Assembly: GCA_965215505.1 (NCBI GenBank)
Contig: OZ244065.1
Span: 4,224,001-4,288,000, forward strand
Source: Capsulimonadaceae bacterium
GTDB lineage: Bacteria; Armatimonadota; Armatimonadia; Armatimonadales; Capsulimonadaceae
DNA: 64,000 nucleotides
Reading direction: 5' to 3'
Shown here: positions 924 through 28,462 of the stretch, piece after piece
How positions within the stretch are numbered: position 1 is the first letter of the stretch
Layout: each line of letters begins with the position of its first letter
Notes under the pieces: model-generated
Told to the model about the DNA's origin: nothing
The model's input: only the letters and a program-made list of their open reading frames with translations
Databases searched by the model: none
Program-made: the position numbers and the translations under genes

Positions 924-2030
924 TCAAGGTTTCACGATCCTTCGCAGCAGCGACGCCCAATGGACGCCGTAAAGGGTGAGGAACGTCAGCGCATAGTGCG
1001 CGGCGTTGCCGGCCGTCGGGCGGGGCTGGCCCGGCGTCCACTGTGTCGGGCGTGGGACTTCCGGCGGGTCGAACCGGTCAAAGTAGTGATGGCTGATGAG
1101 CCATTGGCGCGACGGGAAGACGATGCGCCACAGGGCATGGGCGCGGGCCTGGGGGCTTCCGAGCAGGTGCCAGAGCAGCGGGAGACGCAGGCGCTCGGTC
1201 CGGGCGGCGGCGACGTCCTCGATGCTGTCGGCGGCGCGCGCCTCGCTGATCCGCTCCAGGCGAGCGCGCCCGGCGCGTGGCGCGAGCGAATCCAGAACTT
1301 CGAGCGGGACGGGCGTTCCCAACAGCCGCGCCGCCGCGAACAGGGCGGCGAAGCAGGCCGTGGATGCCCCCGCCGATCCGGCGATGCGGACGAACAGCGG
1401 CCAGTCCACTGTGCTGACCGAGCAGACCTGTGCGATGTCGCGCAAGGACTGCGAGGCGGCCAGGGAGTGCCCCGCTAGGTGCAGGCAGAGGTGAAGTATC
1501 TGGTCTTCCGTCCCGAGTACCCGCCCGTCCGTTCCCGCCAGACGCGCCGGCCGGGCGCGGTCCCACAGGCCCGCGTCATCAACGTGGAACTTGCCGAAGA
1601 AGAGGTCGTTATTGATCAGCTCGGTGTGCAGCTCGACCACTATAGGGCCACGCTCCGTGTGGTTGAAAAAGTTGGCCTGACAGTCGCGGCCCCGGATGAC
1701 CTCCTCCCATTGCAGGGGATCAACGACATACCCCAGCGAATCCAGCAGCGTCCGGGCGCGGGCGGCGTCTTCTGGGCGCACCAGCACGTCCAGGTCTCCG
1801 AACCGGCGCAGGCTGGGGCGCGGGTAGACCGTCTCGGCCAGCGCCGCCCCCTTGAGGACGAGCAGGTCCAGTTTTGCCTCGGTGCAGAGACTCAGCAGAG
1901 CGGCCAGGTGCGGGCGGAAGAAAGCGAACTGGACGAGGGCCGCGACTTCCTCCAGCGCCTCTCCTTCGGGGAGGCGCTGGGCGAAGGGAAACTCCGTTCC
2001 TGTTTGGCTTGCATCAAGGGTGAGAAACAT
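924..2030 (-). CDS. Nucleotidyltransferase family protein (NTP_transf_5-like)
   Basis: LKGAALAETVYPRPSLRRFGDLDVLV motif, VELH, and L..EDQILHLCLH...LRDI. Confidence 0.85.
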   Translation of the reverse strand: MFLTLDASQTGTEFPFAQRLPEGEALEEVAALVQFAFFRPHLAALLSLCTEAKLDLLVLKGAALAETVYPRPSLRRFGDLDVLVRPEDAARARTLLDSLGYVVDPLQWEEVIRGRDCQANFFNHTERGPIVVELHTELINNDLFFGKFHVDDAGLWDRARPARLAGTDGRVLGTEDQILHLCLHLAGHSLAASQSLRDIAQVCSVSTVDWPLFVRIAGSAGASTACFAALFAAARLLGTPVPLEVLDSLAPRAGRARLERISEARAADSIEDVAAARTERLRLPLLWHLLGSPQARAHALWRIVFPSRQWLISHHYFDRFDPPEVPRPTQWTPGQPRPTAGNAAHYALTFLTLYGVHWASLLRRIVKP

Positions 2031-2151: not shown

Positions 2152-2916
2152 CTACCTGCCGGTCCGATCCACGCATTTGCCGCGCGGGCCTGGGAGGAAG
2201 CCGGCGCAGCAGGGGAGCGAGTTGTTGATGTAATTGTAGGTCTGCCCATGCGCGGCACAGGGGAGGGACACACTCGCCGGACCGACATAGAAATCGTTGC
2301 TGTTGATCCCCGTCGCCGGTGAAGAAGTGCTGCTGATGGTGGCCCGCGTGATTAGGTTGTTCACGTTCGTCTGCGCCCCGACAAAAACTGCGGTCCCGGC
2401 GGATGAGGTGTTGTCCGTCGGCCCGAAGGTGAAACTGCCTAGCGAGGTGTTCCCGTTGAAGACGGTCAGCGTGAAGGTTTCCGTGTCCGCATTGAAGTCC
2501 TGGGCGAATAGCCCGAACCCGGTGACACCGTTCTGGAAGCTGATCTGGAGAGGCCCCGTGGCCGTGGGGCTGACGGAGCCGTTGAAGAGTTCTTCCAACA
2601 CGTTCCCCGACCCGAACTGCGGGCCGACCGTCAAGTCAGAGGTGTAGCTCTGAAACCCGCCGCCCGGTGTACCGTTCGTTGCCGAATAGGTCAGGGTGTT
2701 GGTGCCCGCTGTCACTGTGAACGAGGACGGTCCGCTCGCGCCGCTCCCGGAGGTAGTGGGGTAGGGGGCCGTCTGGACAGGGCTGAACAATTGGCTTGGG
2801 CTGGTCACTATCGTGGCCTGCCCCTGTACCGCACGCCAGCCCAGGGTCGCGAAGGTGCAGAGCGCGAGCGCAGTCCATAAGGAGCTGTTGAGGCGGTTTT
2901 TGTGATGGTTGTTCAT
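2152..2916 (-). CDS. Secreted Ser/Thr-rich protein, paralog of the PEP-CTERM protein at 3877-4719, ending in a Cys-rich tail
   Basis: Signal peptide; shares TGPLQI.F.NGV..FGLF.Q, FVGAQ....NLITR and DFY.GP with 3877-4719; ends CAAHGQTYNY...PCCAGFLPGPRGKCVDRTGR. Confidence 0.85.
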   Translation of the reverse strand: MNNHHKNRLNSSLWTALALCTFATLGWRAVQGQATIVTSPSQLFSPVQTAPYPTTSGSGASGPSSFTVTAGTNTLTYSATNGTPGGGFQSYTSDLTVGPQFGSGNVLEELFNGSVSPTATGPLQISFQNGVTGFGLFAQDFNADTETFTLTVFNGNTSLGSFTFGPTDNTSSAGTAVFVGAQTNVNNLITRATISSTSSPATGINSNDFYVGPASVSLPCAAHGQTYNYINNSLPCCAGFLPGPRGKCVDRTGR

Positions 2917-3242
2917 GGTAATCCTTTCGAGCCAGTGCTGTTGCCTCCACTCAAGCTCCTTCGTCTCGTTTCAGTGCCGGGCTTCCACCCCGCCGTTGTC
3001 TCGCTGCCCAATCAGGACTTCATAACTTTCCTGCCATTGTACCCGATTCGTTCGCGATTTTTCTTTCACTACGCGGCGGACCCAGCCAGACGGAGGAAGA
3101 CTGAATCCGGAGGAAGATTGAGTCAGGAGGAAAACTAAATCAGGAGGAATGCGTCATGCAGGCAGGTGACGGAGTAGTAACCAGAGGCGGCCTGCCGCTT
3201 GCTCCCGGAGGCAGGGCAAATGCAACAGGCCGTCAGAACTTG

Positions 3243-3279
3243 AAAAGCCGGGGCGGCATCCCGTAAAACCGCCCCCGGC
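3243..3279 (-). terminator. Intrinsic terminator after the PqqD/RRE gene
   Basis: Minus strand GCCGGGGGCGG..CCGCCCCGGC hairpin followed by TTTT. Confidence 0.6.
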
Positions 3280-3287
3280 AGATATGC

Positions 3288-3323
3288 CTCGGGAGTATGC
3301 TTACATGGCTCGGGAGTATGCTT
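3288..3323. repeat. 15-bp direct repeat CTCGGGAGTATGCTT x2 (period 21)
   Basis: Copies at 3288-3302 and 3309-3323. Confidence 0.8.
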
Positions 3324-3327
3324 GGGG

Positions 3328-3843
3328 TCAGCGTCCAGTCCGGTCAACACATTTGCCGCGTGGTCCGGGGGAATATCCTGAGCAGCAGGGACGTATGGTG
3401 CCTGTTGCCAGGCCGGTGTAGTCAAAGGTCTGCCCGTGTCCAGCACATCTAGTAGACGCCGCCATCGCGGGCGTCGGGGCGACCATGCTCTGGACCACCG
3501 GCAAGAGGAGGGACACACCGCCGACCAAGGCCGCCTTCTGAAGTACCTGTCTTCGCGTGACTCGTCTGGCCTCTTCCGCTCGTACCAGCGGGATTTGCAG
3601 CAGGTGTTCTTTTCCCAAACGGTCCAGCGCAAGCCAGACCATGTCCTCGGTCACCGGTGTTGCCATCTCGCCTTGCAGGGTTTCCACAAGAGCGGCCACC
3701 GTATGCCGGCCATCGCAGTGACGCCAGACCATCGCAGCGGTCCGGTTCAGACGGTGAACATGGTCACGCTGCTCATCATAAATGATGGTTTCATCACCGA
3801 TCTCCTGGACGACAAGGCGGTCCGCTCGTGCTTGTGGTTTCAT
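3328..3843 (-). CDS. PqqD/RRE-domain protein fused to a Tat-like leader and Cys-rich C-terminal peptide
   Basis: N-terminal ~90 aa PqqD-like (QEIGDETIIYD..HRLNRTAAMVWRHCDG); then TRRQVL..hydrophobic..APTPAMAAS; then CAGHGQTFDY...PCCSGYSPGPRGKCVDRTGR. Confidence 0.85.
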   Translation of the reverse strand: MKPQARADRLVVQEIGDETIIYDEQRDHVHRLNRTAAMVWRHCDGRHTVAALVETLQGEMATPVTEDMVWLALDRLGKEHLLQIPLVRAEEARRVTRRQVLQKAALVGGVSLLLPVVQSMVAPTPAMAASTRCAGHGQTFDYTGLATGTIRPCCSGYSPGPRGKCVDRTGR

Positions 3844-3876
3844 TGCTTTCCTATCTCAGCACTTTCCAAATGTCGG

Positions 3877-4719
3877 CTAGCCGGCGGCCTTCTGCGCGGA
3901 CTGTCGGCCGGCGTTCACCTTACGCCGGCGCGCGGAAAGGACGACGCCGGCGAACAGCAGCGTTCCCATGCCGAAGCCCACGACGGTCGAAGCCTCCGGG
4001 ACTGGAGCCGTGAACTGGTAGCTGATGGGGCCGAAGTAGAAGTCGCCTGTCGCGGTGGTGTTGGACATGTCCGTCAGGACGACCCTGGTGATCAGGTTCC
4101 CCGCCAGGGCTTGGGCGCCGACGAACGTCGCGTTGCCCCCTTGAGTCGGCCCGGAACCGGACGTGTTGAGTACGTCCAGAGTAGAGAAACTGCCGAGTGG
4201 GATGGTGCCGTTGGGGCCGCCAAAGACGGAAAAGTTGAAGTGGTATGTGTCTGTACCAGCGGACTGTCCGAAAAGGCCGAATTCATTGACGCCATTGCTG
4301 AAGTCAATCTGGAGAGGCCCAGTCGGAGGCGCGGTCGCTTTAGACGTGTTAAAGTCGAAGGTTTCGATCAGATGTGTCGCGTAAGGAAAAGCATTCGTGT
4401 CGAGCGCCGGCAGGTTCGTGATCGGGTTGGGTTGGTTGACGAAGGTGTCGAAGGCGGTGGCACTCGCCGGCTCAGTCTGCGATGTGAACGTCACCCCCGT
4501 TCCGGGAGAATTCAGCAAGTAGCCAGAAGGGAGCGTCCCGTTGGTGGTGTCAAACTGCGGCGTCATGCTCGCCCCCGGCCCCAGCTGGGATGGCATCGTG
4601 AGCTGGGTCGCCAGTTGTGCCTGGGCCGCCCGTCCGCCTAGGGCTGTGAGGGCGCAGAGCGTGACGGCGGCGGCGAGTTGCTTGCTGTGATCGTATTTGT
4701 GCATGGTAGTTTCTTTCAA
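3877..4719 (-). CDS. PEP-CTERM sorting domain surface protein
   Basis: Signal peptide; C-terminus PVPEASTVVGFG + TM helix + RRRK; alternative start at 4704. Confidence 0.9.
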   Translation of the reverse strand: MKETTMHKYDHSKQLAAAVTLCALTALGGRAAQAQLATQLTMPSQLGPGASMTPQFDTTNGTLPSGYLLNSPGTGVTFTSQTEPASATAFDTFVNQPNPITNLPALDTNAFPYATHLIETFDFNTSKATAPPTGPLQIDFSNGVNEFGLFGQSAGTDTYHFNFSVFGGPNGTIPLGSFSTLDVLNTSGSGPTQGGNATFVGAQALAGNLITRVVLTDMSNTTATGDFYFGPISYQFTAPVPEASTVVGFGMGTLLFAGVVLSARRRKVNAGRQSAQKAAG

Positions 4720-4901: not shown

Positions 4902-5828
4902 TTAGCGCTCTGGCCCGTCCCCGCCGGCCTCTTCCCCACATAAGCGTTCCCGCAGCCAGGCGACAACCCGGTCGGCCTCGCCCCGCTTGCTCTGGAACGC
5001 CTCGGCACCGAGGGCCGCTCTCTGAAGAATCTGCATCGCCGCCTGCGGCTGCCGGCGGACCTGGACGGTGTTGTCCAGCAGTGTCAGCATCGCCCGGCCC
5101 GGCGATTGGGGCCGGGGCCGCCAGCGCGCGCCCGCCTCGTACCGGGCCGCGAGGATCATCCCGACCGGCAGCGGCCCGGTCGCGGCCCGCCCGCCCAATG
5201 CCTCGACGGGGACCGTCTCGCCCGGCCCGCCTTCCGCGTCCCGGAGTGACAGGGGCCGGGCGTAAGGGTGGACATGGCCGCCCTCGTCGAAGACCGCATA
5301 CTCGTCGGAGAAGTATGTCGCCCCCGCCGCCGCCAGGGCCGCCACCAGGCTACTCTTCCCGCTGAAGGTACGCCCCGGAATGACCACGGCTTTCCCGCCC
5401 CACCCGACGACGCCGGCGTGGACGAAGAGACGGTCCCGCGCCTGCTCCGCCACCTGCCCGTGCAGGCCGGAGGTCAGCGCCTGGATGGCCTCGTCCGCCC
5501 TGCGCGTGTGCGCCACCCGGCAGGTCCCCCGGTACAAAAAATAGTGCGGCTCGGGATGCGCCCGCGACCGGCTCTCCACCACGGCCAGCGAGAACAGGCC
5601 GTCCACGGTCGGTGTGGGGGCAGGCTCCGCGCCGGGCGGCAGGTGATCCGTCAGACGATCGAGCAGCGCGGCGTCCGTGGCGCGGACGCCGATCCGGGCA
5701 CCGTGACTGACGAAGGCCAGCCCGGCCGCCCAGCGGAACCTCTCCAGAGCCTTCCAGCAGGGGGAGGAAGCGTCGGGCGGCTGTTCCAGCGTCGGCAGCC
5801 GCGCCCCATCTCTTTGCTCGACCGTCAC
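4902..5828 (-). CDS. HprK-related P-loop kinase
   Basis: FVHAGVV...IPGRTFSGKSSL (Walker A) and YFSDEYAV, the HPr-kinase-like pattern; GTG start. Confidence 0.8.
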   Translation of the reverse strand: MTVEQRDGARLPTLEQPPDASSPCWKALERFRWAAGLAFVSHGARIGVRATDAALLDRLTDHLPPGAEPAPTPTVDGLFSLAVVESRSRAHPEPHYFLYRGTCRVAHTRRADEAIQALTSGLHGQVAEQARDRLFVHAGVVGWGGKAVVIPGRTFSGKSSLVAALAAAGATYFSDEYAVFDEGGHVHPYARPLSLRDAEGGPGETVPVEALGGRAATGPLPVGMILAARYEAGARWRPRPQSPGRAMLTLLDNTVQVRRQPQAAMQILQRAALGAEAFQSKRGEADRVVAWLRERLCGEEAGGDGPER

Positions 5829-6132: not shown

Positions 6133-7944
6133 ATGCCTAGACAGCCTTATCCCCACACGCGAACACCCACGGAGGCCCGGCGAACTGGGCAGCGGCGACG
6201 CTCGGCGGGCGGAGGGTCCTCTGCGGGGAGCTGGCTCGCCGATCATGCCCTCCTCGTCTGCCTCTCCGGCCTCCTCGTCCTCGCCTTCCTGGCCGAGATG
6301 CCCTGGCTGTCCCGGCCCCTGCGGTCCCACCTGCTGCAAGCTGCCGTTGTCCTGATCTATACCCTGATCGCCGCCGCAGGCCCCGCCTCGGGCCGGGTGA
6401 CCCGTGACTCCCTGCGCGGCCCCTCCCTCTGGCTGCTCGGGCTGCTGGCCTGGAGCGGCCTGAGCGCCGCCCTCGCGCCGTACCCCGCCTTTGCCGCCTC
6501 CGAGCTGCTGCGGCTCGCCCTGGGCGCGGGCGTCTACTTCGTGGCGGCCCACGTCCTGCGGCCCCACGAGGCGCGGCTCCTCCCCCTCTTCCTGCTCGGC
6601 CTGGGCGCGGCCGTCGGCCTGTACGGCCTGATTGAATTCGGGGCGGAAGGCAACTTCGGCACCGGGGCGATCCACAGCGTCTTCGGCAACCACGAGCAGC
6701 TCGGATCGTTCCTCGTCCTCCTGCTGCCGCTCGGGCTGGCGCTCGCCCTGGACCGCAGCGAGGGGTTAAAGAAGCGCCTGCTGTTCGCGCAGGGCGCGGC
6801 CCTGGTCATCGGCGCGGCCCTGCTGCTGGCGCGCACCCGCTCCGCCTGGCTCGGGGCGACGGCCGGGCTTGTCCTGCTGGCCTTCCTGACATTGCGCTAT
6901 TCGTCCATCCGGCTGACCCGCAGCAACCGCGCCCTCGTCATCGGCCCGGCGCTGATTCTGGTGCTGGCCTTCACGGGCCTGCTCGTCTTCGGCGAACTCG
7001 CCCCGCTCGTCTCGCACCGGGCAGCGACCCTGGCGCACGCGGGCGATGACACTTCCCTCGCCGACCGCCTGCACCGCTGGCGGTCGGCCTGCCGGATGGC
7101 CTCCGAAAAGCCGGTCACCGGCTGGGGCCTGGGCGCGTGGCCGGTCATGCAGGGGCGCTGGACGCACCAGGGCGACGACGTCAGCGAGGTGCTGGGGGCG
7201 GGTACGGGCCATTCCAACCTCGCCCACAACTTCTGGGCGCAGTGGGCCGCCGAGACGGGCGGGGTCGGCCTGGCCCTCCATCTCGGCGTCCTGGCCGCTT
7301 TCCTGCTGGCGGGCCTGCGCGCGCTGCCCCGACTGGACCGGGAGCGGCGGACTTTGCTCCTAGGCTGCCTCGCCGCCGCCGCAGCGGGCGGCGTGGACAT
7401 GGCCGGTGCCCCCTCCTACACCTTCCCCGGCGTCTCCTCCCTGTTCTGGGTCACGCTGGGCCTGGGCGTCGCCCTGCTGCCCGGACCCGGCGGGGCGCGG
7501 GCGACGCGCCGTTTCGACTGGCTGATTCCCCTGAGCGCTGGACTCGCCGCCGCCCTGGCCGTTGTGGGCATCGGCGACAGGCTCCGCGCGGACGGGCGGG
7601 CGGCCCCGCGCGGGACCCTGACCGTGACCGCCCAGCCGCCCGGCCCGGTCGCGCCCGGAACGCGTGTCCTGTGGACCGCCACCTACCATGCCCCCGACGG
7701 CACGGCCCGCCCGACCGCGCCAGGCACCGTCTGGAAGGTCACGGAAGGCGGCCTGACGAAGACCAGCCCGACCTTCCTGTTCCTGAACCGGGAACCCCAG
7801 CGCTCCGGCTGGCAGGGCAACATCGCCCCCGGTGTGAGCCGGGTGACAGTAACGGCGTACTACTGGGACCAGTTCAGCCGCCCCTACCAAGTTTCTTTGC
7901 CTGTGGCCGTCAAAACTGTCAAAAACCCTGTTGCAAATCCGTAA
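6133..7944 (+). CDS. O-antigen ligase/Wzy_C family membrane protein with C-terminal beta-rich extracytoplasmic domain
   Basis: Many TM helices; FGNHEQLG, TRSAWLG, R...W....M....P..GWGLG, AHNFW motifs. Confidence 0.85.
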   Translation: MPRQPYPHTRTPTEARRTGQRRRSAGGGSSAGSWLADHALLVCLSGLLVLAFLAEMPWLSRPLRSHLLQAAVVLIYTLIAAAGPASGRVTRDSLRGPSLWLLGLLAWSGLSAALAPYPAFAASELLRLALGAGVYFVAAHVLRPHEARLLPLFLLGLGAAVGLYGLIEFGAEGNFGTGAIHSVFGNHEQLGSFLVLLLPLGLALALDRSEGLKKRLLFAQGAALVIGAALLLARTRSAWLGATAGLVLLAFLTLRYSSIRLTRSNRALVIGPALILVLAFTGLLVFGELAPLVSHRAATLAHAGDDTSLADRLHRWRSACRMASEKPVTGWGLGAWPVMQGRWTHQGDDVSEVLGAGTGHSNLAHNFWAQWAAETGGVGLALHLGVLAAFLLAGLRALPRLDRERRTLLLGCLAAAAAGGVDMAGAPSYTFPGVSSLFWVTLGLGVALLPGPGGARATRRFDWLIPLSAGLAAALAVVGIGDRLRADGRAAPRGTLTVTAQPPGPVAPGTRVLWTATYHAPDGTARPTAPGTVWKVTEGGLTKTSPTFLFLNREPQRSGWQGNIAPGVSRVTVTAYYWDQFSRPYQVSLPVAVKTVKNPVANP

Positions 7945-7958
7945 GAATCGTGTATAAT
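7931..7958 (+). promoter_or_regulatory. Sigma70-type promoter for 8040-8507
   Basis: TTGCAA-N16-TATAAT. Confidence 0.6.
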
Positions 7959-8039
7959 ACGCATACCTGCTAGTCGTATCGGCATGGACGCATCGGGGAG
8001 ATCGCATCTTCCCCTGTTTCGACGGCCACGAGGCAAATC

Positions 8040-8507
8040 ATGACGCTTTCACAAAGACTCACACGCGCCGGGCTGGTCTTCATCCTGCTGGGTTCCGTCG
8101 CCGCCGCTCTGCCACAGCAGAATGGCGCTGCGTCCGCTGACCCAAACGGCTGCTTCACGGGTACGCCAGGCCGCTTTGCCATCTCTAACAGCGCACCTGC
8201 AACTGATTCAACGACTGTTACCGCCAATTACACAGTGTCCACACAAGGCACCACATTCAATTTCTATTTCTCCCCTGACTCTACCAGCGCCTATAGCTCG
8301 GTGACACCGACCACTAGCTCGATTGTTGTGAACACTGGCTCACTCATCATCAATGGTGCAACAGTGGCAGCAACCGGCTCAGTCAGTAACAGTTCTGCTT
8401 CGGAGAACATAGCGCAGAATGGAGCAAACACCGGAAGTTCGACCTTCACGAGTAGCTACACAAGTGGCAGTAACACTTATAAGGCCTCGATCACGGTCGG
8501 TGCGTAG
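8040..8507 (+). CDS. Small secreted Ser/Thr-rich hypothetical protein
   Basis: Signal peptide; beta-strand-like S/T-rich mature part; lower GC than neighbours; own promoter and terminator. Confidence 0.75.
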   Translation: MTLSQRLTRAGLVFILLGSVAAALPQQNGAASADPNGCFTGTPGRFAISNSAPATDSTTVTANYTVSTQGTTFNFYFSPDSTSAYSSVTPTTSSIVVNTGSLIINGATVAATGSVSNSSASENIAQNGANTGSSTFTSSYTSGSNTYKASITVGA

Positions 8508-8541
8508 GTGTTGTTCCTCTAAACATTTGCCAACTACGATG

Positions 8542-8574
8542 CAGCCTTCGGTCATAAAGGCCGAAGGCTGTTTT
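8542..8574 (+). terminator. Intrinsic terminator
   Basis: CAGCCTTCGG-loop-CCGAAGGCTG-TTTT. Confidence 0.8.
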
Positions 8575-8661
8575 GACATCAGATGCCTCAATGCCATCCC
8601 CCGTTTCCTTTCCCCAATTCTAGAGGACTAGGAAGCCGTTTCTCCTTCTTCCCCGGCCTGA

Positions 8662-9879
8662 CTACCCCAACAGATACTCATAAATGCCTTCCAGTTTGCG
8701 GGCCGTCTGCGCCAGCGTGAACCGCTCCCGCACGCGCTCCCGCCCCGCCGCACCCATCGCCGCCGCGCGGGCCGGGTCGGACAGCAGGGCCGCCATCGCC
8801 TCCGCCATCGCGGGGGCGTCCCCCATCGGCACCAGCAGGCCGGTCACGCCGGGGATCACGATCTCCGGCAGCGCACCGCCGTTAGTGGCGATGATCGGCT
8901 TCCCCGCCGCCATCCCCTCGACGACCACCTGCCCGAACGGCTCCCCCAAGGTACTGGCGTGGACCACGAGGTCCACCCCGGCCAGCAGTGCAGGCACGTC
9001 CTCCCGGAACCCCAGAAACTCGACCCGGTCCCCCATCTCTAGGTCGCGGGCCATCCGGTGCAGGGACCGCTCGTACTCGTGTTCGCCGAACAGGGGTGCC
9101 CCGATGATCTGGAACCGGGCCTGCGGGAACCGGTCCTGGAGCAGGGCGGCGGCCTGAAGGAAAACGTGCTGCCCCTTCCACCCGGCGATGCGCCCGACCA
9201 GGGCGACGGTCTGCGGGCGGCCCTGGGCGGACGCCGGTTCGGCGGGCGGAACGCGCTCGTCCAACTGCTCGCCGCCCACGCCGCTGTAGACCACCGGCAC
9301 CGAGTCGGCGTGGGTCGGCCGCAGGTGCCGCCGCGTGTTCTCAGAATTGGCGATCACCTGACGCGGGAGGATCTTGATGAGGATGCGGAAGAGCGTGGTC
9401 AGGGAGCCGGGCAGATAGCCGTCCCCGATGATGTCCCGGACGTGCCAGAGTACCGGGATGTGCGCGAGACGGCCCGCAAGCCCCCCGTACACGTCCGCCT
9501 TGAGAGAGTTCGTGTGGATCAGGTCAACCCCATGCCGACGCGCGAACCGAGCCAGGCGCACCGCGTAAGCGATGCAGAGGCCGGCCTGCCGCAGCCTGAA
9601 TAGGGACTGGAACCCCAGGCTGTCTTTGCGCGCCTCGACGATGGACCTGTCCAGCGGCAGCACATGGGTCTCTACCCCGGCCCCCCGCAGCTTCTCGGCG
9701 AGCGGTCCCGCCGAGGCCAGGGCGACGATGGGTGTGAAGCGCGACCGGTCGAGCGCGCCGATGAGGCCGAGCAGGGCGATTTCGCCGCCACCCATTTTCG
9801 CTGTGTGGTCCAGAAAAAGGATGGTCTTGGTTCCCGGTACAGATTGGAATATCACTCGCCCATTTGACTTCCCGCTCAC
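8662..9879 (-). CDS. GT4 glycosyltransferase
   Basis: GGGEIAL, VGRIAGWKG, EPFGQVVVEGMAAG. Confidence 0.9.
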   Translation of the reverse strand: MSGKSNGRVIFQSVPGTKTILFLDHTAKMGGGEIALLGLIGALDRSRFTPIVALASAGPLAEKLRGAGVETHVLPLDRSIVEARKDSLGFQSLFRLRQAGLCIAYAVRLARFARRHGVDLIHTNSLKADVYGGLAGRLAHIPVLWHVRDIIGDGYLPGSLTTLFRILIKILPRQVIANSENTRRHLRPTHADSVPVVYSGVGGEQLDERVPPAEPASAQGRPQTVALVGRIAGWKGQHVFLQAAALLQDRFPQARFQIIGAPLFGEHEYERSLHRMARDLEMGDRVEFLGFREDVPALLAGVDLVVHASTLGEPFGQVVVEGMAAGKPIIATNGGALPEIVIPGVTGLLVPMGDAPAMAEAMAALLSDPARAAAMGAAGRERVRERFTLAQTARKLEGIYEYLLG

Positions 9880-11063
9880 CGTCGGAGCCTGCCCTGGTGG
9901 ACGGCCTCGTAGACGGCCAGCGTCTGTTCGGCCGTCCGCTCCCAGGAGAACTCGGCGGCGCGCGCCAGCCCTTTCTCCCGGAGGGAGTGGCGCAGCGCCG
10001 ACGACTCCGCGACCTCGCCGAGCGCCCGAGTCACGGTTCCGGTCTCCTCGGCGGATACCAGGCGGCCGGCGGATCCGGCGACCTCGGGCAGTGCGGAGGC
10101 GTTATTGATGATGACGGGGACGCCGCAGGCCATCGCCTGGAGGGGCGGCAGCCCGAACCCTTCGTAGGCGCTGAGGTAGACGAACGCCAGCGCGGCGTTG
10201 TACCACCAGACGACCTCCTCGCGCGGGATAAAACCCGGAAAGAGGACGTGTTCCCGCAGGCCCAGGCTCTGGACCTGATCGAAAATCCCCTGGTACATCC
10301 ACCCCTTCGGGCCGGCCAAGATCAGCTTCGGCACCCCCGCCATGGCCCCGCGTCCGTGCAGGGCGGCATAGGCCCGCAGGAGGTGCGGGATGTTCTTGCG
10401 CGGCTCCAGTGTACCCAGGTACAAAAAATACCGCTCCGGCAGGCCGCGCCGCGCCCGGAAAGCTTCCACGGCGCGCTCCCCGTCCGACGTCCCCCCGAGC
10501 CACCGATACTCCCTGTCGGCGGCCAGCGGCACCGTGACCACCCGCGCCGGGTCGGCCCCGAGCAGCCGGATCACGTCCTGACGGGTGTTCTCCGACACCG
10601 CCAGGATGGCGTCGGCGGACCGGACCGAGAGCCGGGTCATCAGCCGCAGGTACTCGCGCTTTGCGGGCAGGTGGCGGTCCCGGAAGAGCAGGAAGGCCAG
10701 GTCGTGGATGGTGACGATGCGCGGCCGGCGGGCCAGCAGGGGGATGACGTTGACCGGGCTGTGGATCACGTCCATCTTCCGGGTCGCCAGCGCGTGGGTC
10801 GTCTGCTCCCACAGGAACCGGGTCGGGGGGTAATGAGTCGGCGCGAGCGTCGTGGCCAGGCGGAAGTTGGGGCTGAGGGCCAGCCGCTGCCGCGCCTCGG
10901 GGTCACGCGCCCAGGCCCCGGTGTAGACCGTATAGCAGTTGGACTGATCCACCTGGCCCAGCCCGTGCAGCAGGTGGGAGATGTAGTTGGAAAGCCCGGT
11001 CGCCCGGTAAGTGTCGCCGTGATTGAGCAGAGAAGCGTTGATGGCGATGTTCACCGTTTGCAC
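9876..11063 (-). CDS. GT4 glycosyltransferase
   Basis: VTIHDL, LGTLEPRKN, YEGFGLPPLQAMACG. Confidence 0.9.
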   Translation of the reverse strand: MQTVNIAINASLLNHGDTYRATGLSNYISHLLHGLGQVDQSNCYTVYTGAWARDPEARQRLALSPNFRLATTLAPTHYPPTRFLWEQTTHALATRKMDVIHSPVNVIPLLARRPRIVTIHDLAFLLFRDRHLPAKREYLRLMTRLSVRSADAILAVSENTRQDVIRLLGADPARVVTVPLAADREYRWLGGTSDGERAVEAFRARRGLPERYFLYLGTLEPRKNIPHLLRAYAALHGRGAMAGVPKLILAGPKGWMYQGIFDQVQSLGLREHVLFPGFIPREEVVWWYNAALAFVYLSAYEGFGLPPLQAMACGVPVIINNASALPEVAGSAGRLVSAEETGTVTRALGEVAESSALRHSLREKGLARAAEFSWERTAEQTLAVYEAVHQGRLRR

Positions 11064-12199
11064 CCTCCCGCCAAGGGCACCGCCGACTGCTCACATAATC
11101 CCCCATAGAGCGTGTGCATCTGATCCGCGACCTTCTGCCAACTGTACAGGCCGCTCGCGCGCGCCTGCCCGAGTCGCCCGTACTCCGCCCGCCGCTCCGG
11201 GTGATCCAGCAGCGTCCGGAGCCGGCCCGCCAGGGCGGCGGCGTCCCCCTCCGGGAACGTCAGCCCCGCCCCCCCAATGACCTCGGGGATGGCACCCGAG
11301 TCCGAGCCGACGACCGGCAGGCCGCACGCACCCGCTTCGATCAGGACCCTGCCGAACTGCTCTTTCCAGGTGACATGGGTGCGTGAGGGGAGGACAAGGG
11401 TGTCCATGGCGTTCATGTGCGCGGGGAGGTCGGTGAGGGGGACGGGGCCGGCGAAGTGGACGCGGGGGGCGACTTTCAGGGAGCGGGCGAGGGCTTCGAG
11501 GGCGGGGCGGAAGGGGCCTTCGCCGACGAGGAGGAGGCGGGCCTGGGGGGGGAGAAGGGCCAGGGCGTTGAGGAGGTCGGCCAGCCCTTTTTCGGGGACG
11601 AGGCGGCCGACGTAGCCGATGACGAAGCCGTCGTGGGGGACGGGGCGGGGGCGGAAGAGGGCGCAGTCTACGGCGTTGGGGACGATTTCGGCGGGGCCTT
11701 TGTAGCCTTTCCGGCGGGCGACGGCGAGGGCCTCGGTGCTGCGGGCGACGAGGAAGTCCGCGCGGCGGAGGGTGTAGTCCTGGAACAGACGGAAGGGGGG
11801 CGGGAGGCGCTTGTAGATGTTCTGCTCGGTCTCGATGAGGATCCTCGCGCGCGGGCAGAACCGCCGGGTCAGGCGGACGGCCTGGGCGCAGGTCAGGCCC
11901 CACGGCTCCTCCCAGATGTCCACGATGTCGGGCTGGGTTTCGCGCAGGAGGCGGGGCAGGGCATCGGTATAGTGCTGCAAGTACCACTGGTTCAGGATGC
12001 TGCGCCAGCGGGTGCGGCCGACGACGTAGCGGAAGTCCGGGTCCTCCGGCGTCTCGGCGGCCTGCCACTGGCCGTAGGTCCGCATGCGGTCGGGGACAAG
12101 CACGGTCAGGTCGAGGCCGGGGAAGGCGGCCAGGCAGTGCGCTTTGGGCTGCCCTGCGGTCCGCGACATGCAGGTGTGGGAGACGAGGAGGACTTTCAC
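11051..12199 (-). CDS. GT4 glycosyltransferase
   Basis: VGRLVPEKG, WKEQFGRVLIEAGACG. Confidence 0.9.
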   Translation of the reverse strand: MKVLLVSHTCMSRTAGQPKAHCLAAFPGLDLTVLVPDRMRTYGQWQAAETPEDPDFRYVVGRTRWRSILNQWYLQHYTDALPRLLRETQPDIVDIWEEPWGLTCAQAVRLTRRFCPRARILIETEQNIYKRLPPPFRLFQDYTLRRADFLVARSTEALAVARRKGYKGPAEIVPNAVDCALFRPRPVPHDGFVIGYVGRLVPEKGLADLLNALALLPPQARLLLVGEGPFRPALEALARSLKVAPRVHFAGPVPLTDLPAHMNAMDTLVLPSRTHVTWKEQFGRVLIEAGACGLPVVGSDSGAIPEVIGGAGLTFPEGDAAALAGRLRTLLDHPERRAEYGRLGQARASGLYSWQKVADQMHTLYGGLCEQSAVPLAGGCKR

Positions 12200-13311
12200 C
12201 CGCCGGCCTCCGTCGAAAGGCAGCGGCGGTAGACGGCCTCGGTCCGGCGGGCCATGGCGGCGGCGGAGAAGTGTTCGGCGGCCCGCTGCCGTCCGGCCTG
12301 TCCCATGGCGCGGGCCTGGGCAGGATGGTCGAGGAGGCAGCGCAGGGCTTGGGCGAGAGCGGCGGGGTCTGCGGGGGCGACGAGAAGGCCGGTGACGCCG
12401 TCTTCGATGATCTCCAAAGGCCCGCCGGCGCGGGCGGCGACGGCGGGCTTGCCCAGCGTCATGGCTTCCACGAGGGCGATGCCGAACGGCTCGGCGGGGC
12501 TTGGCAGGACGAAGACGTCCGCGCCCGCGACCCAGTCAGGCACGTCGGGGCGGAAGCCCAGGAAGTGGACGGAGGCGGCCAGGCCGAGGGCGTCCGCCTC
12601 GGCTTCGAGCGGGGCGCGCAGGCCGCCTTCGCCGATCACCAGGAGGTGCGGCGTCGGGGTGCGGTCGCGGAGTCCGGCGAGGGCGCGCAGGAGGTACTCG
12701 ATGCCTTTCTCGGGCGCGAGGCGGGCGACCGTGGCGATGACGGGGGCGTCGGCGGGGATGCCGAGGCCGGCGAGTCGGGCCGGCCCGTCCGGGCAGGGCA
12801 TGTCGGGGGCGAGGATCCCGTTCGCGATGACGGTGGCCCGCGCGGCGGGCATCTCGCGGCGTTCCAGGGCGGCCTCAAGGACCGCGCGGGAGACGGCGAT
12901 GTGGGCGGCGACCATTTGGTTGACGGCGCGGTGGGCTAGGGCGGCGGCACGGCCCTTCAGCCCGCCGCGCTGTGTGTAAGCTGGCTCGACGAAGTGCTGG
13001 GTGGCGACGACGCGTGTCCCCGTCCGGGCCAGGCGGGCGGCGGACACGGCGCGGAACTTGGAATTGCCGTCGTGCGCGTGGATCAGGGCGAAGCGCTCCC
13101 GGCGCAGCAGCCGCACGAGGGCGGGTACGCCGCCTGCCGGGTGGCAGGGGATGCCCGCCGTGTGGGCGCGGTCGTGGAGGAGGGTGCCCGGACGGCAGAG
13201 GAGGGCAGGGGCGTGTCGGGACGGGTCGAGAGCGCGCAGGAGGGTGAGGACGTGTGACTCCGTCCCGGCGTAGCCTTCAGTATCGAGGTAGTGCAGGACT
13301 TTAGGCGGCAC
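12196..13311 (-). CDS. GT4 glycosyltransferase
   Basis: VARLAPEKG, EPFGIALVEAM. Confidence 0.9.
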   Translation of the reverse strand: MPPKVLHYLDTEGYAGTESHVLTLLRALDPSRHAPALLCRPGTLLHDRAHTAGIPCHPAGGVPALVRLLRRERFALIHAHDGNSKFRAVSAARLARTGTRVVATQHFVEPAYTQRGGLKGRAAALAHRAVNQMVAAHIAVSRAVLEAALERREMPAARATVIANGILAPDMPCPDGPARLAGLGIPADAPVIATVARLAPEKGIEYLLRALAGLRDRTPTPHLLVIGEGGLRAPLEAEADALGLAASVHFLGFRPDVPDWVAGADVFVLPSPAEPFGIALVEAMTLGKPAVAARAGGPLEIIEDGVTGLLVAPADPAALAQALRCLLDHPAQARAMGQAGRQRAAEHFSAAAMARRTEAVYRRCLSTEAGG

Positions 13312-14662
13312 GGGTGGCGAGGCCTTTCACCGGCGGTTCGGGTGCGGTCTTCTGGCGTTTCAGGTAGAGGAAGAGGGAGACGCACAGGCCGGCGGCAGCC
13401 CAGGCGAGGAAGACGACGCCGCGCCGCCAGTAAGCGTCCACCGCGCCGTGGACGGTCGGGACGGTGAAGACTCCGGCACAGCAGAGGAGGATTCGCCCGG
13501 TCTGGCTGGAGCGGAGGGCGCGCTGGGGGAGGGACCGGCAGAGCCGCAGGAGCAGGGAATAGACGGAGCCGAGCAGGAAGAGGAAGGCGGCCATGCCGAC
13601 GACGCCCATTTCGGCCAGGGTCAGGACGTAGACGTTTTCGGGGTCGGCCTCTTTGCGGAGGCCGATGCCGGTGCCCAGGAAGGGGTGCGCCTTCCACAAG
13701 TCCAGGGCGGCGGCCTGGTGGTCCAGCCGGACCTGCATGGTGTTGGCGTGCAGGGACAGGTTGCCGGCGTATTCGGCGGAGTCGCTGGGAAGCATGGACC
13801 AGCAGACGGCGAAGATGGGGACGGCGAGCGCGGCCATGACGGCGACGCCGCGCAGGTCGCGCCGCAGGGCCAGGACGAGGAGGCAGGCGACTACGGTGGC
13901 GGTCCACGCGCCGCGCGACAGGCTCAGGATGGTGCCCATGAGGGACAGGACGAAGGCGGCGATGATCCAGGGGCGGAAGCGGGCGGCGATGTCCGAGGAG
14001 CGCAGGTAGACCAGGCCGACGACGACGCCGCAGGCGAGGGAGGGGCCGATGGCGTTCTTGTGCATGCCCAGGATGTACAGCCCGTTCTTCGCGCCGGCCG
14101 CGAACCCGATGACGGCGGCGAGACCCAGCAGGGCCTCGGTCACGAGCAGCAGGAGGAAGCAGCGCTCCATTTCGGTGGGCGTCTTGATGAAGGCGGCGAA
14201 GATAAGGGTCGTGCAGAGCGTGAATTCGACGTAGCGGCCCAGGGACACGACGGCATCCTGACCGCGCCAGTTTCCGGCGCTGGCGAGGAGGATGACGGCC
14301 AGGAACACCAGCAGCGGCAGCCGGAGCGGGCCGAGTGTCGGGCGGAGTCGCCCCTGGACCGCGTAGACCAGCAGGACGACGACCATGAGGGCGGCCATGA
14401 CGTCGGAGAAGCAGACGAAGACGCTGGAGCTGTCCCCGAGCAGCGACTGCGGCAGGATTCCCGCCGCGAACGCGACGGCGAGCCACTGGGTCGGCTTGCG
14501 GTAGGCCAGCAGGAAGATCAAGGACCCGGCGGCGGCGGCGACGGCCAGCATGGGGCTGACGAAGTACAGCGCGGCACACAGGGCCAGCAGGGCGGCGGGG
14601 ACGAAAATGCCCGCGTTCGGGCCGCCCGCGGCGGAGCGGGACTGCTGGGGCGTGTCAAGCAT
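13301..14662 (-). CDS. O-antigen ligase/polymerase (Wzy/WaaL-like) family protein
   Basis: Multi-TM; SLSRGAW, HPFLGTGIG, ENVYVLTLAEMG; start reassigned to ATG 14662 (MLDTP). Confidence 0.8.
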   Translation of the reverse strand: MLDTPQQSRSAAGGPNAGIFVPAALLALCAALYFVSPMLAVAAAAGSLIFLLAYRKPTQWLAVAFAAGILPQSLLGDSSSVFVCFSDVMAALMVVVLLVYAVQGRLRPTLGPLRLPLLVFLAVILLASAGNWRGQDAVVSLGRYVEFTLCTTLIFAAFIKTPTEMERCFLLLLVTEALLGLAAVIGFAAGAKNGLYILGMHKNAIGPSLACGVVVGLVYLRSSDIAARFRPWIIAAFVLSLMGTILSLSRGAWTATVVACLLVLALRRDLRGVAVMAALAVPIFAVCWSMLPSDSAEYAGNLSLHANTMQVRLDHQAAALDLWKAHPFLGTGIGLRKEADPENVYVLTLAEMGVVGMAAFLFLLGSVYSLLLRLCRSLPQRALRSSQTGRILLCCAGVFTVPTVHGAVDAYWRRGVVFLAWAAAGLCVSLFLYLKRQKTAPEPPVKGLATRAA

Positions 14663-15632
14663 GGGCGGGCGTCCCCACGGCGGGCGTCGGGGCCAGGCCG
14701 GGCGTGTGCCACAGGCCGAGGTTCCAGCGCAGGATGTTGACCCACAAACGCACCAGGGCCCAGGCTTTGAGGCGGCGCGCGGGGCTGACGGCGGCCAGGG
14801 CGGCGAACAGGGGGACACGCAGGAACGCGCCCAGTATCAGGCTTACACGCAAAGCCAGTGCGCCGGACGCGCCGTGGTGCTTGCGGTAGAAGCGGCGCTG
14901 GCCCGCGCTGAACTCGGCGAAGACGCGGTCTGCCTGCGCCTTGCCGGAGCCGCCGCCGTGGTGGACCACCTCGGCGTCGGGCGTGAACCACACTTGGTAG
15001 CCCGCGTCGCGCATCCGGCGGCACCAGTCGGTTTCCTCGGCGTACATGAAGAAGTCCTCGTCGAGCAGGCCGACGGCGGGCAGGACGTCGGCGCGGACGA
15101 GCAGGGCCGCGCCGATGACGAAGTCCACGGCCCGCGCCCGGTCGTGTGCCCAGCGGCGGTAGTCGCCCCAGCGCGGGTGGTCGGCCAGGAGGCTGGTGAG
15201 GAAGAGCTGGTCGCGGAAGGCGCGGGCGGGCACGGGGAAGCGGTAGCAGGAGCGCTGGAGCGAGCCATCGGGGTTGACGAGGCGCGGCCCGACGGCGGCG
15301 GCCTCGGGGCGGGCGTCGAGCGCCCGAAGCATCCCGGCCAATGCGCCCGGCCTGACGAGGGTGTCGCTGTTGAGCAGCAGGGCCGTCCGCCCCCGCATCC
15401 GGCGCAGGCCGAGGTTGTTGGCCCTGGCAAAGCCCAGGTTCTCCCCCGCCTCAATGACTAGAACATCGGGGAACTCCGCCCGCACCATCGCAACGCTGCC
15501 GTCGCCGCTGCCGTTGTCCACGACGATGACCTCGTGCGTCGGCGCGTCCGGGTCTTCCCAGAGCGACGTGAGGCAGTCGCGCAGATACCCGCGCGTGTTG
15601 TAGCTGACGATGATGACGGAAACCTCGACCAT
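14655..15632 (-). CDS. GT2 glycosyltransferase (rhamnosyltransferase-like)
   Basis: [33 protein letters not shown]. Confidence 0.9.
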
Positions 15633-15678
15633 ATACCTGTTTAGTATTGCACAATCCATGCCAAAGCAAGCCGAGAGA

Positions 15679-16194
15679 CTAATCGCGGAACTTCGCGACG
15701 CGGGCGGGGCTGCCGACGGCGACGGCGTGGGCGGGGATGTCGGACAGGACGACCGAATTAGCCCCGATCACGGCCCGGTCGCCGACGGTGATGCCGCCCA
15801 GAATCTTCGCCCCCGCCGAGGCGGTGACCCAGTCGCCCAAGACGGGCTGGCCGTCGCCCTTGCCCGAGTCGCCGACGGTGACGCCGTGGAAGCAGAGGAA
15901 GTGCGCCCCGATCACGACGCGGTCGCCGATGACGACGCCGCTGCTGTGGACGAGGCAGAAGCCCGGCCCGATCTGTGCGGCGGGGTGTATCTCCGCCCCC
16001 GACCGACTCAGGATGACGGCCTGCAAGTAGTAGGCGAAGGGCGTCAGCCGCAGCCGGTAGAGCGCGTGTGCGACTCGGAACAGCAGGACGGCCTGAAGGC
16101 GCGGGTACAGCAGCAGTTTCAGCAGCACGGCGAGGCCATAGCCGAGCTTGCCCCCGCCCCGGTTCATCACCATGCCGCGAATGTCTTCACGCAT
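15679..16194 (-). CDS. Hexapeptide-repeat O-acetyltransferase (CysE/WcaB-like)
   Basis: GAEIHPAAQIG, GVTVGD, IGANSVV, AVGSPAR; start uncertain (TTG 16215 possible). Confidence 0.85.
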   Translation of the reverse strand: MREDIRGMVMNRGGGKLGYGLAVLLKLLLYPRLQAVLLFRVAHALYRLRLTPFAYYLQAVILSRSGAEIHPAAQIGPGFCLVHSSGVVIGDRVVIGAHFLCFHGVTVGDSGKGDGQPVLGDWVTASAGAKILGGITVGDRAVIGANSVVLSDIPAHAVAVGSPARVAKFRD

Positions 16195-16202
16195 GAGCGC
16201 GG

Positions 16203-17411
16203 CTAAAGATGGCAATTTGTCTGCCCCACGGCACTGAGACACTCCTGCCCCACGGCACTGAGACACTCCTGCATCACCGCCTCGACGGCATCCATCCGTG
16301 ACCCCCAGGAGTGCCGCTGCGCCTCCGCCCGCCGGTCCTCTTGTCCGGTCTGTCCTGCGGCAAGCGCCGCCTCACACGCCGCCAGGAACGTCTCGCTGGT
16401 GGCAGCAAGGCGGACGAACTGCGGGTAGTCGCGGAAGCCGGCGACGTCCGTGCTGACGATGGGTTTGCCCCCGGCCAGGTACTCCCAGAGCTTGATCGGG
16501 TTCAGGCTCTCGGTGAACGGCGTCATCCGGTGCGGGGTGATGCAGACGTCGAAGGCGCGCATGTAGTCCGGCACTTCGGCATAGGGGACGGGGCCGGTGA
16601 TCTGGACGTTCCCAACCGCCCTCAGCCGGGCCTCATCGGCGGCGGGCAGATGGTTCGGCCCCACCAGGGCGACCGTGCCGCGCGCGAACCTCCGGGCCAG
16701 TGCCTCGATAAGCCCCACGTCCACGCGGTCGGGGTGGATGGTGCCGGTATAACCCAGCACGGGTTTGGCCCAATGCGCGGCGGTCGGCGGCAGCGGCAGC
16801 GCGGCATCCTGAACGCGCTCATAGTGTGCGGCGTCCACGCCGTTCGGGATCAAGTATAGATTGGGCGTCAGGCCCCGCTTCATGTCGTAGAGCTTCTGGG
16901 AGCAGACGATGACCGCATCCGCCCGGCGGCACAAGGCTTCGTCCTGGGCGGCGGTCAGACGCCGCAGCCAGTCCTTCTGCGTCAGGCTGATCCAGTCGTC
17001 GGTGATGTCGTAGACGACCGCCCGCTCGCCCATCCGCCCGGCCATGTGGACGGCGGAATGCGGGTTGAGCCAGAGCAGGGGCCGCGTGATCCCCAGCGCC
17101 CGTGCCGCCTGCCGCACCTGATGCCGCATCAGCGCTTCGTTGGCCCGCCGCCCCCAGGCGAGCGTGTTGGGGAACACCTTCAGCGGGCGCAAGAGTGTGA
17201 CGTTCGGGTACTCCGGCACGGCCACCAGCGGCGCGGCCCGCAGCGCCCCCAAACGCCCGCGCCGCAGGCCGTGGGAGACGTCGCGCGCCAGCCCGACGAA
17301 CAGTATCTTGTGGTCAGGGTGTCGCCGGGCCAGCCCCGCGCAGAGGAACTGGTTGCGCCGCCAGACCTCATCCCAATCTTCCAGGGAGACGAAAATCAGG
17401 TTAAACATCAT
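16203..17411 (-). CDS. GT4-like glycosyltransferase (TuaH-like)
   Basis: DWDEVWRRNQFL, VYDITDDW, NPIKLWEYLAGGKPIVST. Confidence 0.85.
   Translation of the reverse strand: MMFNLIFVSLEDWDEVWRRNQFLCAGLARRHPDHKILFVGLARDVSHGLRRGRLGALRAAPLVAVPEYPNVTLLRPLKVFPNTLAWGRRANEALMRHQVRQAARALGITRPLLWLNPHSAVHMAGRMGERAVVYDITDDWISLTQKDWLRRLTAAQDEALCRRADAVIVCSQKLYDMKRGLTPNLYLIPNGVDAAHYERVQDAALPLPPTAAHWAKPVLGYTGTIHPDRVDVGLIEALARRFARGTVALVGPNHLPAADEARLRAVGNVQITGPVPYAEVPDYMRAFDVCITPHRMTPFTESLNPIKLWEYLAGGKPIVSTDVAGFRDYPQFVRLAATSETFLAACEAALAAGQTGQEDRRAEAQRHSWGSRMDAVEAVMQECLSAVGQECLSAVGQTNCHL
16221..16272. repeat. 24-bp tandem duplication at the 3' end of the GT gene
   Basis: CTGCCCCACGGCACTGAGACACTC x2, giving QECLSAVG twice. 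Confidence 0.85.
17323..17396. repeat. 74-bp direct repeat, copy 1 (5' end of GT 16203-17411)
   Basis: 71/74 identical to 18725-18798. Confidence 0.9.
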
Positions 17412-18682: not shown

Positions 18683-18724
18683 GTTCCAAGGCCTTGACTA
18701 TCACAAAAAACAAATTACGAGAAG

Positions 18725-18798
18725 CGCCGGGCCAGCCCCGCGCAGAGGAACTGGTCGCGCCGCCAGACCTCATCCCAGTCTTCCGGGGAGACGAAAAT
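18725..18798 (-). pseudogene. Orphan remnant of the 5' end of GT 16203-17411 (repeat copy 2)
   Basis: Translates IFVSPEDWDEVWRRDQFLCAGLAR versus IFVSLEDWDEVWRRNQFLCAGLAR in the intact gene. Confidence 0.85.
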
Positions 18799-18875
18799 GA
18801 TGTCCGGTAATGCTTGCACTAGAAGTTGTTCTTGATCCTCTAACGTCAACCCTCTGCCGGTCCGAGAGGCGCGAC

Positions 18876-24650: not shown

Positions 24651-24651
24651 T

Positions 24652-25578: not shown

Positions 25579-25615
25579 CGTCGTACTCGATAGTATGTTG
25601 AGAACAAGAATAATT

Positions 25616-26554: not shown

Positions 26555-26557
26555 GGT

Positions 26558-27526: not shown

Positions 27527-27585
27527 TGTTGCAGAAAGAAATCACATGCGGCATTGTTATGAAGGGCTATATCCATAATATGTTT

Positions 27586-28431: not shown

Positions 28432-28462
28432 TAAAAAGCCTTTTTGACAAAGAAATGAAAAC

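Follow-up and report, generated by a model that had tools for sequence, protein, structure and literature searches.

The window, by which we mean the whole stretch of 64,000 nucleotides that was analysed (Capsulimonadaceae bacterium, contig OZ244065.1, positions 4,224,001 to 4,288,000), carries an operon that in reading order encodes an HprK-related kinase, the PEP-CTERM protein C, the RRE-fused precursor B, the secreted protein A and a PF14907 nucleotidyltransferase (Table 1). The proteins A and B end in a common four-cysteine module, and these tails were confirmed at the coordinates given in the first-pass annotation, at the C-terminal ends of two minus-strand ORFs. A PDB sequence search with the kinase returned only weak matches to GTPase P-loops. 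A promoter and terminator scan gave counts at the chance level, and the listed sequencing-run holders included no RNA runs. The genome also encodes TatC, a VKOR paired with a DsbA, and exosortases, of which there are three; DsbB was not found in it. Neither the VKOR-DsbA pair nor another PqqD-like match elsewhere in the genome belongs to this system.

Table 1. Features of the operon and its surroundings, with positions counted within the window.
Feature	Positions	Strand	Remarks
Nucleotidyltransferase, NTP_transf_5	924..2030	-	PF14907, 132.8 bits
Gene A, 254-aa ORF	2152..2916	-	Sec-type signal peptide, CBM-like beta-sandwich and 4-Cys tail
Signal peptide of A			About residues 1-33
CBM-like beta-sandwich of A			About residues 34-217
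Tail of A, C-x15-CC-x10-C	2152..2259	-	Copies the B core but not the invariant Ser upstream of it; in the place of PEP-CTERM
Gene B, 171-aa ORF, RRE-fused precursor	3328..3843	-	PF05402, 38.3 bits, over cut-off
Core of B, C-x19-CC-x10-C, cationic, knottin-like	3328..3447	-	pLDDT 79-91 over residues 131-170
Ser130 of B, proposed kinase target	3454..3456	-	Putative target role, by analogy with LPP
Internal twin-arginine leader of B	3460..3558	-	Ends in predicted signal-peptidase site AMA
PqqD/RRE domain of B, residues 1-81	3601..3843	-	Structure matches 6jx3, 5v1u
Gene C, PEP-CTERM paralog of A	3877..4719	-	Likely start ATG at 4701
HprK-related kinase	4902..5828	-	TIGR04352, E 3e-20, 72 bits, under cut-off of 200; P-loop intact
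Neighbouring polysaccharide locus	6133..29827	.	O-antigen-ligase-like genes, many GT4/GT2, GT87, GT47, GT10, ABC ATPase

The N-terminal part of B has the PqqD/RRE fold of three strands and three helices (PF05402) and superimposes on the lasso B1 structures 6jx3 and 5v1u with Z scores of 8.5 and 8.2, respectively (rmsd 2.8-2.9, 76-77 residues aligned); TIGR04353 gave no match on B. This domain is followed by a twin-arginine hydrophobic segment ending in PTPAMA, and then by a serine and the cysteine core. Across 98 aligned four-Cys B proteins R97, R98, P115, P123 to A128 (PTPAMA), the serine and three of the cysteines are invariant, with the fourth cysteine nearly so, and the serine is present at the position of Ser130 in 104 of 104 B cores, at +2 from the predicted cleavage site and three residues before the first cysteine. 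The leader contains a hydrophobic window of 1.89 and scores 16.5 bits against TIGR01409, just below the cut-off of 16.7. With RR and AMA invariant and TatC encoded in the genome, B is a candidate Tat substrate, albeit one whose twin-arginine motif is internal, with 96 residues ahead of it, instead of N-terminal. In the AlphaFold model of B the leader is unplaced, with pLDDT below 50 at residues 109-125, so that the notion of the RRE holding its own leader is left without support from the model.

The core carries four cysteines in 105 of the 120 homologs listed, out of 185, the others being distant forms with other cores, or partial. Its commonest spacing is C-x12-CC-x9-C, its loops vary on a fixed cysteine frame, and its net charge has a median of +4 with a range of +2 to +8. 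A PDB sequence search with the core returned nine matches, four of them knottins at E 0.1-0.2 and five designed propeller repeats, Pfam Tachystatin_A was matched by three of 16 members (best E 0.011), and Foldseek placed 2m9l at rank 50 for the B model (probability 0.75, TM 0.65 by target length, rmsd 2.1, 40 columns, E 1.5), none of these knottin matches being significant individually. The VIA lists for the whole B model contain RRE and winged-helix folds only and hardly sample the core, and the ESM Atlas gave no usable match to it, which shows neither absence nor novelty. An inhibitor cystine knot is defined by six cysteines and three knotted disulfides, a number of cysteines that the core does not reach. 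We read the core of B as a knottin lacking one bridge, for which the general disulfide pattern of knottins predicts the pairing Cys1-Cys3 and Cys2-Cys4. A metal-binding role of the four cysteines was set aside, as two of them are adjacent and export is predicted. The disulfide-type mini-domain suggested in the first pass is judged to be right as a prediction; the RiPP core suggested there is apt for B, as a RiPP-like core, and the tail of A is a copy of that core.

Protein A is related to C (38% identity, E 1e-23) and differs from it in its C-terminus. C ends in a hydrophobic window of 1.87 followed by basic residues, and its PEP-CTERM matches fall under the cut-off (PF07589, E 0.009; TIGR02595, 15.6 bits against 16); the best 19-residue hydropathy within the last 60 residues is 0.51 for A as compared to the 1.87 of C. 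Nine of 31 A homologs end in a Cys tail and 22 in PEP-CTERM, and the exchange lies at a single point, where VPEA of the C-type proteins aligns with LPCA of most A-type proteins (VP/E junction). In a tree built after removal of signal peptides and tails the domains of the nine A proteins group together as a single clade with a support of 100/99. A has neither an RRE nor a twin-arginine leader, and a serine equivalent to Ser130 is found in just four of the nine A tails, including that of the window; as this serine occurs in 104 of 104 B cores, A would have taken over the folded mini-domain and not the modification site. The model of A (pTM 0.72) has a domain matching CBM22/DUF4465-type folds (Z about 10, rmsd 2.9-3.3, 134-155 residues aligned), a sharing of fold that shows no function, and A has no match in Pfam or NCBIfam. 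The tail has a pLDDT below 50 in the A model, a value that is uninformative given that 23 of the 32 alignment rows have PEP-CTERM at that place. A metagenome scan with A recovered one locus out of 321 pattern matches, and the tail profile searched against 1.84 billion representatives gave 18 matches, one of B-type and 17 unrelated; the latter were rejected as further carriers, their motif being generic and many of them containing tandem Cys-rich repeats.

As had been noted earlier, A and B have the same final 13 residues, with synonymous changes in nine of these codons, and their stop codons differ (TAG and TGA). Along the module as a whole, 24 of the 35 residues that align are the same, and 12 of those 24 are encoded by different codons. 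In a BLASTP search of 118,184 ORFs from a six-frame translation of the genome, each tail matched, besides itself, only the other tail (E 4e-13 and 1e-10), which excludes a chance likeness; the 6.18-Mb genome contains two copies of the module. From the codon differences the first-pass annotation had argued for purifying selection and against a recent DNA duplication, on a module conserved at the protein but not at the DNA level. Purifying selection is borne out, although the codon argument cannot separate co-selection from ordinary purifying selection. The copying is indeed not recent, but copying of DNA was nevertheless the origin of the likeness, and to deny conservation at the DNA level was too strong, since two stretches of the tails, of 56 and 31 nt, are still 75% and 74% identical, respectively. 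A contig of sequencing run X3, from a separate study, shows no differences over 2568-4661, a range that takes in the whole of B and the spacer between A and B and leaves out the A tail. The last 14 residues of A are unchanged in two further database proteins, P0122 and P0123, and the A tail of a relative in run X6 has one residue altered inside the 13-residue stretch; the 13 differences listed out of 20 touch 11 codons, seven silently and four non-silently, with none at a cysteine. Joints in sequencing runs at 80% likeness were assigned to other organisms and excluded.

Kinase, B and nucleotidyltransferase are either all present or all absent in each of the 24 genus genomes (two B genes cut by contig ends being counted as present): 18 genomes have matches to the kinase and the nucleotidyltransferase, and the remaining six are devoid of all three. 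B was located in 17 of the 24, while in an eighteenth (G022) the end of B lies at a contig edge. The sole kinase match of genome G002 is a distant one. Gene order is constant wherever the contigs permit its determination, 13 genomes having all four on a single contig and five having them divided by contig ends. A is present in two of the 24 genus genomes and is dispensable, as B directly precedes the nucleotidyltransferase, with A absent, in 15 of them. Named GTDB relatives number 11, namely eight Armatimonadota (assigned to Capsulimonadaceae, Armatimonadales or the phylum), one Janthinobacterium and two more distant Gemmatimonadaceae. In 12 wider loci, compared by clustering of flanking ORFs, 26 of which were scanned against Pfam, the conserved set consists of kinase, C, B and nucleotidyltransferase only, and this set constitutes a conserved Armatimonadota operon. 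Polysaccharide genes border the operon in the window and also in several relatives.

The tail of A tracks the core of the local B. Six A/B pairs, few in number and mutually related, were available for comparison, three of them adjacent on the DNA (the window, G012/L004 and L051) and three inferred from source contigs of equal size; among 106 B cores the partner B ranked 2, 2, 1, 1, 1 and 2 for the six A tails. In two of the three inferred pairs a C gene matches the source-contig size too. In the three pairs adjacent on DNA the A tail is 62-74% identical to its own B, as compared to medians of 40-46% and maxima of 48-54% against 15 other B cores. The tail and core of the G012 pair both end in an RFNRC-type hairpin, and those of the L051 pair have in common a longer second loop, with 13 residues between CC and the last cysteine, which is unique among 104 B cores. 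The tails of P0125, P0127 and P0129 match one another as strongly, or almost as strongly, as they match their own B, and three further A proteins without a known partner each closely match some B cores. No stale tail was seen in the six pairs, although 26-50% of the shared codons have drifted. In the A tree the A of the window is placed with P0124 in a group (100/99) that excludes P0123, a protein with the same tail type as the window; in a quick tree of 45 chosen B proteins the B of the window and the partner of P0124 fall into separate groups (SH-aLRT 99 and 92). The two trees thus disagree, each tail following its B, and one ancient copying event with vertical descent cannot explain this pattern; the tail has been renewed more than once from the local B, or else the parts recombined and were then re-matched. 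Copying was likely to have proceeded from B to A, since operons that lack A bear cores of the same types. In all, gene A very probably goes back to a single duplication of a C-type PEP-CTERM gene, whose exosortase anchor then gave way to a copy of the folded part of the B core; this tail was overwritten again at later times from the adjacent B, with purifying selection acting to retain it.

It may be that this matching requires no recognition at all, and that occasional gene conversion between stretches 1.2 kb apart renews the A tail, a generic stable mini-domain whose local match is a by-product. Such a history, which we hold to be somewhat unlikely, is in keeping with the persisting likeness at the DNA level, with synonymous differences between A and its own B of just 6/23 and 8/26 in two pairs as against a pooled 47-58% to other B genes, and with the absence of A from most operons; the C..PCCxGL..C motif is, moreover, also tandemly repeated in unrelated secreted proteins. 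Ordinary purifying selection following a single copying can also produce the pattern seen in the window without any need for matching, because B orthologs can keep cores of 82-97% identity at near-saturated synonymous sites (G021/G008, core identity 0.97 at 44% synonymous difference; G005/G021, 0.82 at 45%). However, B cores can also change fast, as in G009/G002 where the N-terminal part is 89% identical and the core 55%, and rare neutral conversion should therefore leave stale tails behind, yet none of the six pairs is mismatched even though the copying looks old, with synonymous differences of 26-50%.

Our preferred reading is that the tail of A serves as a strain-matched binding tag, a non-covalent anchor either to the modified B peptide or to the ligand of B, and would put the probability of this at about one in two, with direct self-docking of A on B taking half of that weight. 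A binding tag is the simplest reading of a domain that stands exactly where an anchor stood and has to look like an exported peptide made alongside it. B would act as a self-chaperoned precursor whose RRE recruits the kinase, which in turn would phosphorylate Ser130, and the nucleotidyltransferase may extend this phosphate with a sugar. The twin-arginine leader would carry B through Tat, upon which signal peptidase would free a cationic mini-protein of 43 residues; this would form its two predicted disulfides, giving a cystine knot minus one bridge, and would be tethered to the cell surface via the modified serine. A, on the other hand, would be exported by Sec without being a substrate of the kinase, and its matched tail would bind either the B peptide itself, like on like, or the strain-specific surface ligand recognised by that peptide, whereby A could show its CBM-like domain at the surface without an exosortase. 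The operon may also be functionally tied to the neighbouring polysaccharide locus. A complex predicted with alignments for B 129-171 and A 215-254 scored 0.43 as compared to 0.01 for the best control, which lends weak support to docking, given that the score mark is reached by 116 of 157 solved and two of 215 mismatched pairs, and at scores up to 0.60 by 18 of the 157 solved pairs and both mismatched ones. The runs agree in at least 97% of the contacts between tail and core and the partner pLDDT is at least 84, although the two chains are homologous, so that intrachain contacts can pass for interchain ones and inflate the score. The complete scheme, in which a phospho(glyco)serine-tethered mini-protein and a passenger docking like on like, kept in step by gene conversion, make up a strain-specific self-matching surface display, is tentative and rather doubtful.

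The module could instead face outward, as a cationic binder or defence peptide directed at the glycans or membranes of host or competing cells, which B would release as a modified peptide and A would bear on its lectin-like domain, the match between them reflecting a common external target. The positive charge of the B cores, the variability of their loops on the fixed cysteine frame, the CBM-like domain of A and the matches to Tachystatin_A, tachystatin being a chitin binder, would all suit such a role. It is nevertheless unlikely, as an operon that borders polysaccharide genes and holds a PEP-CTERM gene points to the envelope of the cell itself, no conserved immunity or dedicated transporter gene adjoins it in the 12 wider loci, and there is one copy per genome. 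Less credible still is that the tail is a recognition tag for the kinase or the nucleotidyltransferase which, primed by the RRE and leader of B, would modify A in trans before its export. A does sit within the operon of these enzymes, co-evolution of enzyme and core would produce matching, and the A of the window has a serine at the equivalent position; against this, most A proteins are devoid of that serine, A has no RRE or twin-arginine leader of its own, and in the available text of PMC8498205 related kinases show little specificity for the remaining peptide. That the module is a general C-terminal sorting signal or a portable domain on many, unrelated proteins, as the first-pass annotation had envisaged, is very improbable in spite of its location exactly where the paralog has PEP-CTERM and of basic residues near its end, since a profile search over the 8000 best-scoring candidates, of the kind proposed there to find further N-terminal partners, gave 76 matches of only two carrier types (71 PqqD-fused B-type and five A-type), which in the window are operon neighbours and not independent carriers, since 39 family genomes hold no second kind of carrier and this genome has two copies of the module but, as counted with an approximate regular expression, 67 ends of PEP-CTERM-like type, and since the module, as opposed to classical and Cys-containing sorting signals, has no transmembrane segment.

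If the complete self-matching display scheme is real, a RiPP-like product would act as an anchor for other proteins, replacing sorting by PEP-CTERM and exosortase. The exchange of PEP-CTERM for a genome-matched B core in A is new, whereas the enzyme set itself is already known, and the matching of A and B hints at an undescribed, self-matching way to hold proteins on the cell surface. Literature titles and abstracts (supplements and most subscription journals aside) contained neither an RRE-fused twin-arginine Cys-rich precursor nor a swap of PEP-CTERM for a Cys tail, and there is no RRE-twin-Arg-Cys fusion in the accessible part of the RRE-Finder paper (PMC7470986). The fusion of a RiPP-type core to a surface protein in the exact place of its anchor is a natural clue to envelope binding, and the A/B pairs, with five tail types each having its own B, represent a ready panel of cognate and non-cognate combinations. 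A bacterial, knottin-like scaffold whose loops vary around two predicted disulfides is of interest per se, as is concerted evolution between the core of a precursor and the tail of a secreted protein.

The core of B has the C...CC...C frame and spacing of inhibitor cystine knots such as asteropsins, PcFK1, conotoxin TVIIA, protoxin-1 and tachystatin A, to which its matches are weak; its four cysteines allow no more than two disulfides and hence not a true knot, and it is bacterial and located within an RRE precursor. As regards PEP-CTERM/exosortase and the Cys-containing MYXO-, JDVT-, Synerg- and CGP-CTERM signals, A is of PEP-CTERM descent and has the module in the place of the signal, but the module has no transmembrane helix, its four cysteines lie in a folded mini-domain and there is only one secreted carrier per genome. 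Tripartite sorting signals have, in the portion of the source available, a hydrophobic transmembrane segment after the signature motif (10.1101/2023.06.07.544157); the module has no such segment and, with two copies in the genome, is not found on many secreted proteins. The HPr-rel-A system resembles the operon in its kinase (TIGR04352, E 3e-20) and in its PqqD-family and nucleotidyltransferase neighbours; here, however, the kinase scores 72 against a cut-off of 200, TIGR04353 is silent on B and PqqD is fused to a substrate-like tail. The paeninodin/pseudomycoidin set, in the available text of PMC8498205, likewise comprises an HPr-kinase homolog that phosphorylates serine and a nucleotidyltransferase tied to the addition of a hexose to the phosphate, as occurs in pseudomycoidin, while no lasso cyclase or B2 peptidase was seen in the present operon, and the serine would here be N-terminal in the mature peptide, not C-terminal. 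The closest parallel is provided by the linear polyphosphorylated peptide (LPP) set of LppA, LppB RRE, LppK, LppS, LppN and LppD, for which the accessible portion of PMC13381572 describes a kinase that polyphosphorylates Ser3, just after the signal-peptidase cut, and an NTP transferase without detectable effect; clusters of RRE, HprK-kinase and nucleotidyltransferase beside capsule loci are described there as having products without a known role. The present operon has in common with LPP an RRE, an HprK-like kinase (TIGR04352, under cut-off) and an NTP transferase, with no macrolactam cyclase and beside capsule/polysaccharide genes, and also a conserved serine just after a signal-peptidase-type site followed by a variable C-terminus. 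It differs in that the discrete RRE of LPP is here fused with leader and core in one ORF, that the LPP leader YxxPxVLxHQxIxFETxxS is absent, the consensus of 98 B proteins being twin-arginine and hydrophobic with no YxxP, that neither the dedicated SpI peptidase nor the MsbA-like exporter of the LPP cluster is in the operon or among the genes conserved across the 12 wider loci, and that it has a 4-Cys mini-domain core, belongs to the phylum Armatimonadota and includes a second protein with a copy of the core. By the criteria of the LPP family B lies outside it, yet on this analogy it probably works like LPP.

Third-codon-position GC in the 4-Cys core of gene B, the precursor gene, is low at 0.54 (window 3331-3447), compared with 0.66 in the N-terminal part of the same gene and 0.78-0.87 in the secreted-protein gene A, its PEP-CTERM paralog C, the kinase gene and the nucleotidyltransferase gene. 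The synonymous drift that separates the A tail from the B core seems to lie mostly on the B side. The spacer between B and A contains two short tandem repeats, as listed below.

Tandem repeats in the 411-nt spacer between genes B and A
Repeat	Window coordinates
3 x 17 nt	3091-3141
2 x 19 nt	3284-3323

The B gene of one genome of the genus (G018; L014:1501-1990) carries an in-frame TAG within the core, directly past the first Cys, with the remainder of the core continuing in frame downstream, and this represents either a pseudogene or a sequencing error. For the B-type database proteins P0041 and P0046, the cores of which differ, and for the C-type protein P0148, the longest contig measures 19,470 bases in each case, and it is possible that two precursor genes are located on a single contig.

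In distant B homologs (L017, L019, L061, L062; P0107-P0120) the RRE domain and leader are retained while the cores are unrelated and contain 0-10 Cys residues, and a PEP-CTERM gene was missing from those of their loci that were seen. A C-x3-G..PCCxGL..C motif was also found as tandem repeats in unrelated proteins (P0153-P0170), often together with a signal peptide, and a Pfam comparison of the tail-profile members yielded no convincing family match.

C-type PEP-CTERM homologs also occur outside the operon (L028, L030, L032), two of the carrier genomes being without a detected operon. Three genomes of the genus, G006 (L022), G017 (L024) and G002 (L025), harbour a second, distant set of clustered matches to stand-alone PqqD, the kinase and the nucleotidyltransferase. 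The operon of L059, a record titled Janthinobacterium lividum, is the same as that in Armatimonadota records, and this record may be a mislabelled bin.

Beyond the nucleotidyltransferase gene, L051 encodes GT4, Wzc-like and Wza-like proteins, and in three genomes a similar ORF follows directly (L005:1-390, L003:2-424, L006:2531-2974); the single copy scanned was assigned to DUF3485, which corresponds to EpsI, the partner of exosortase.
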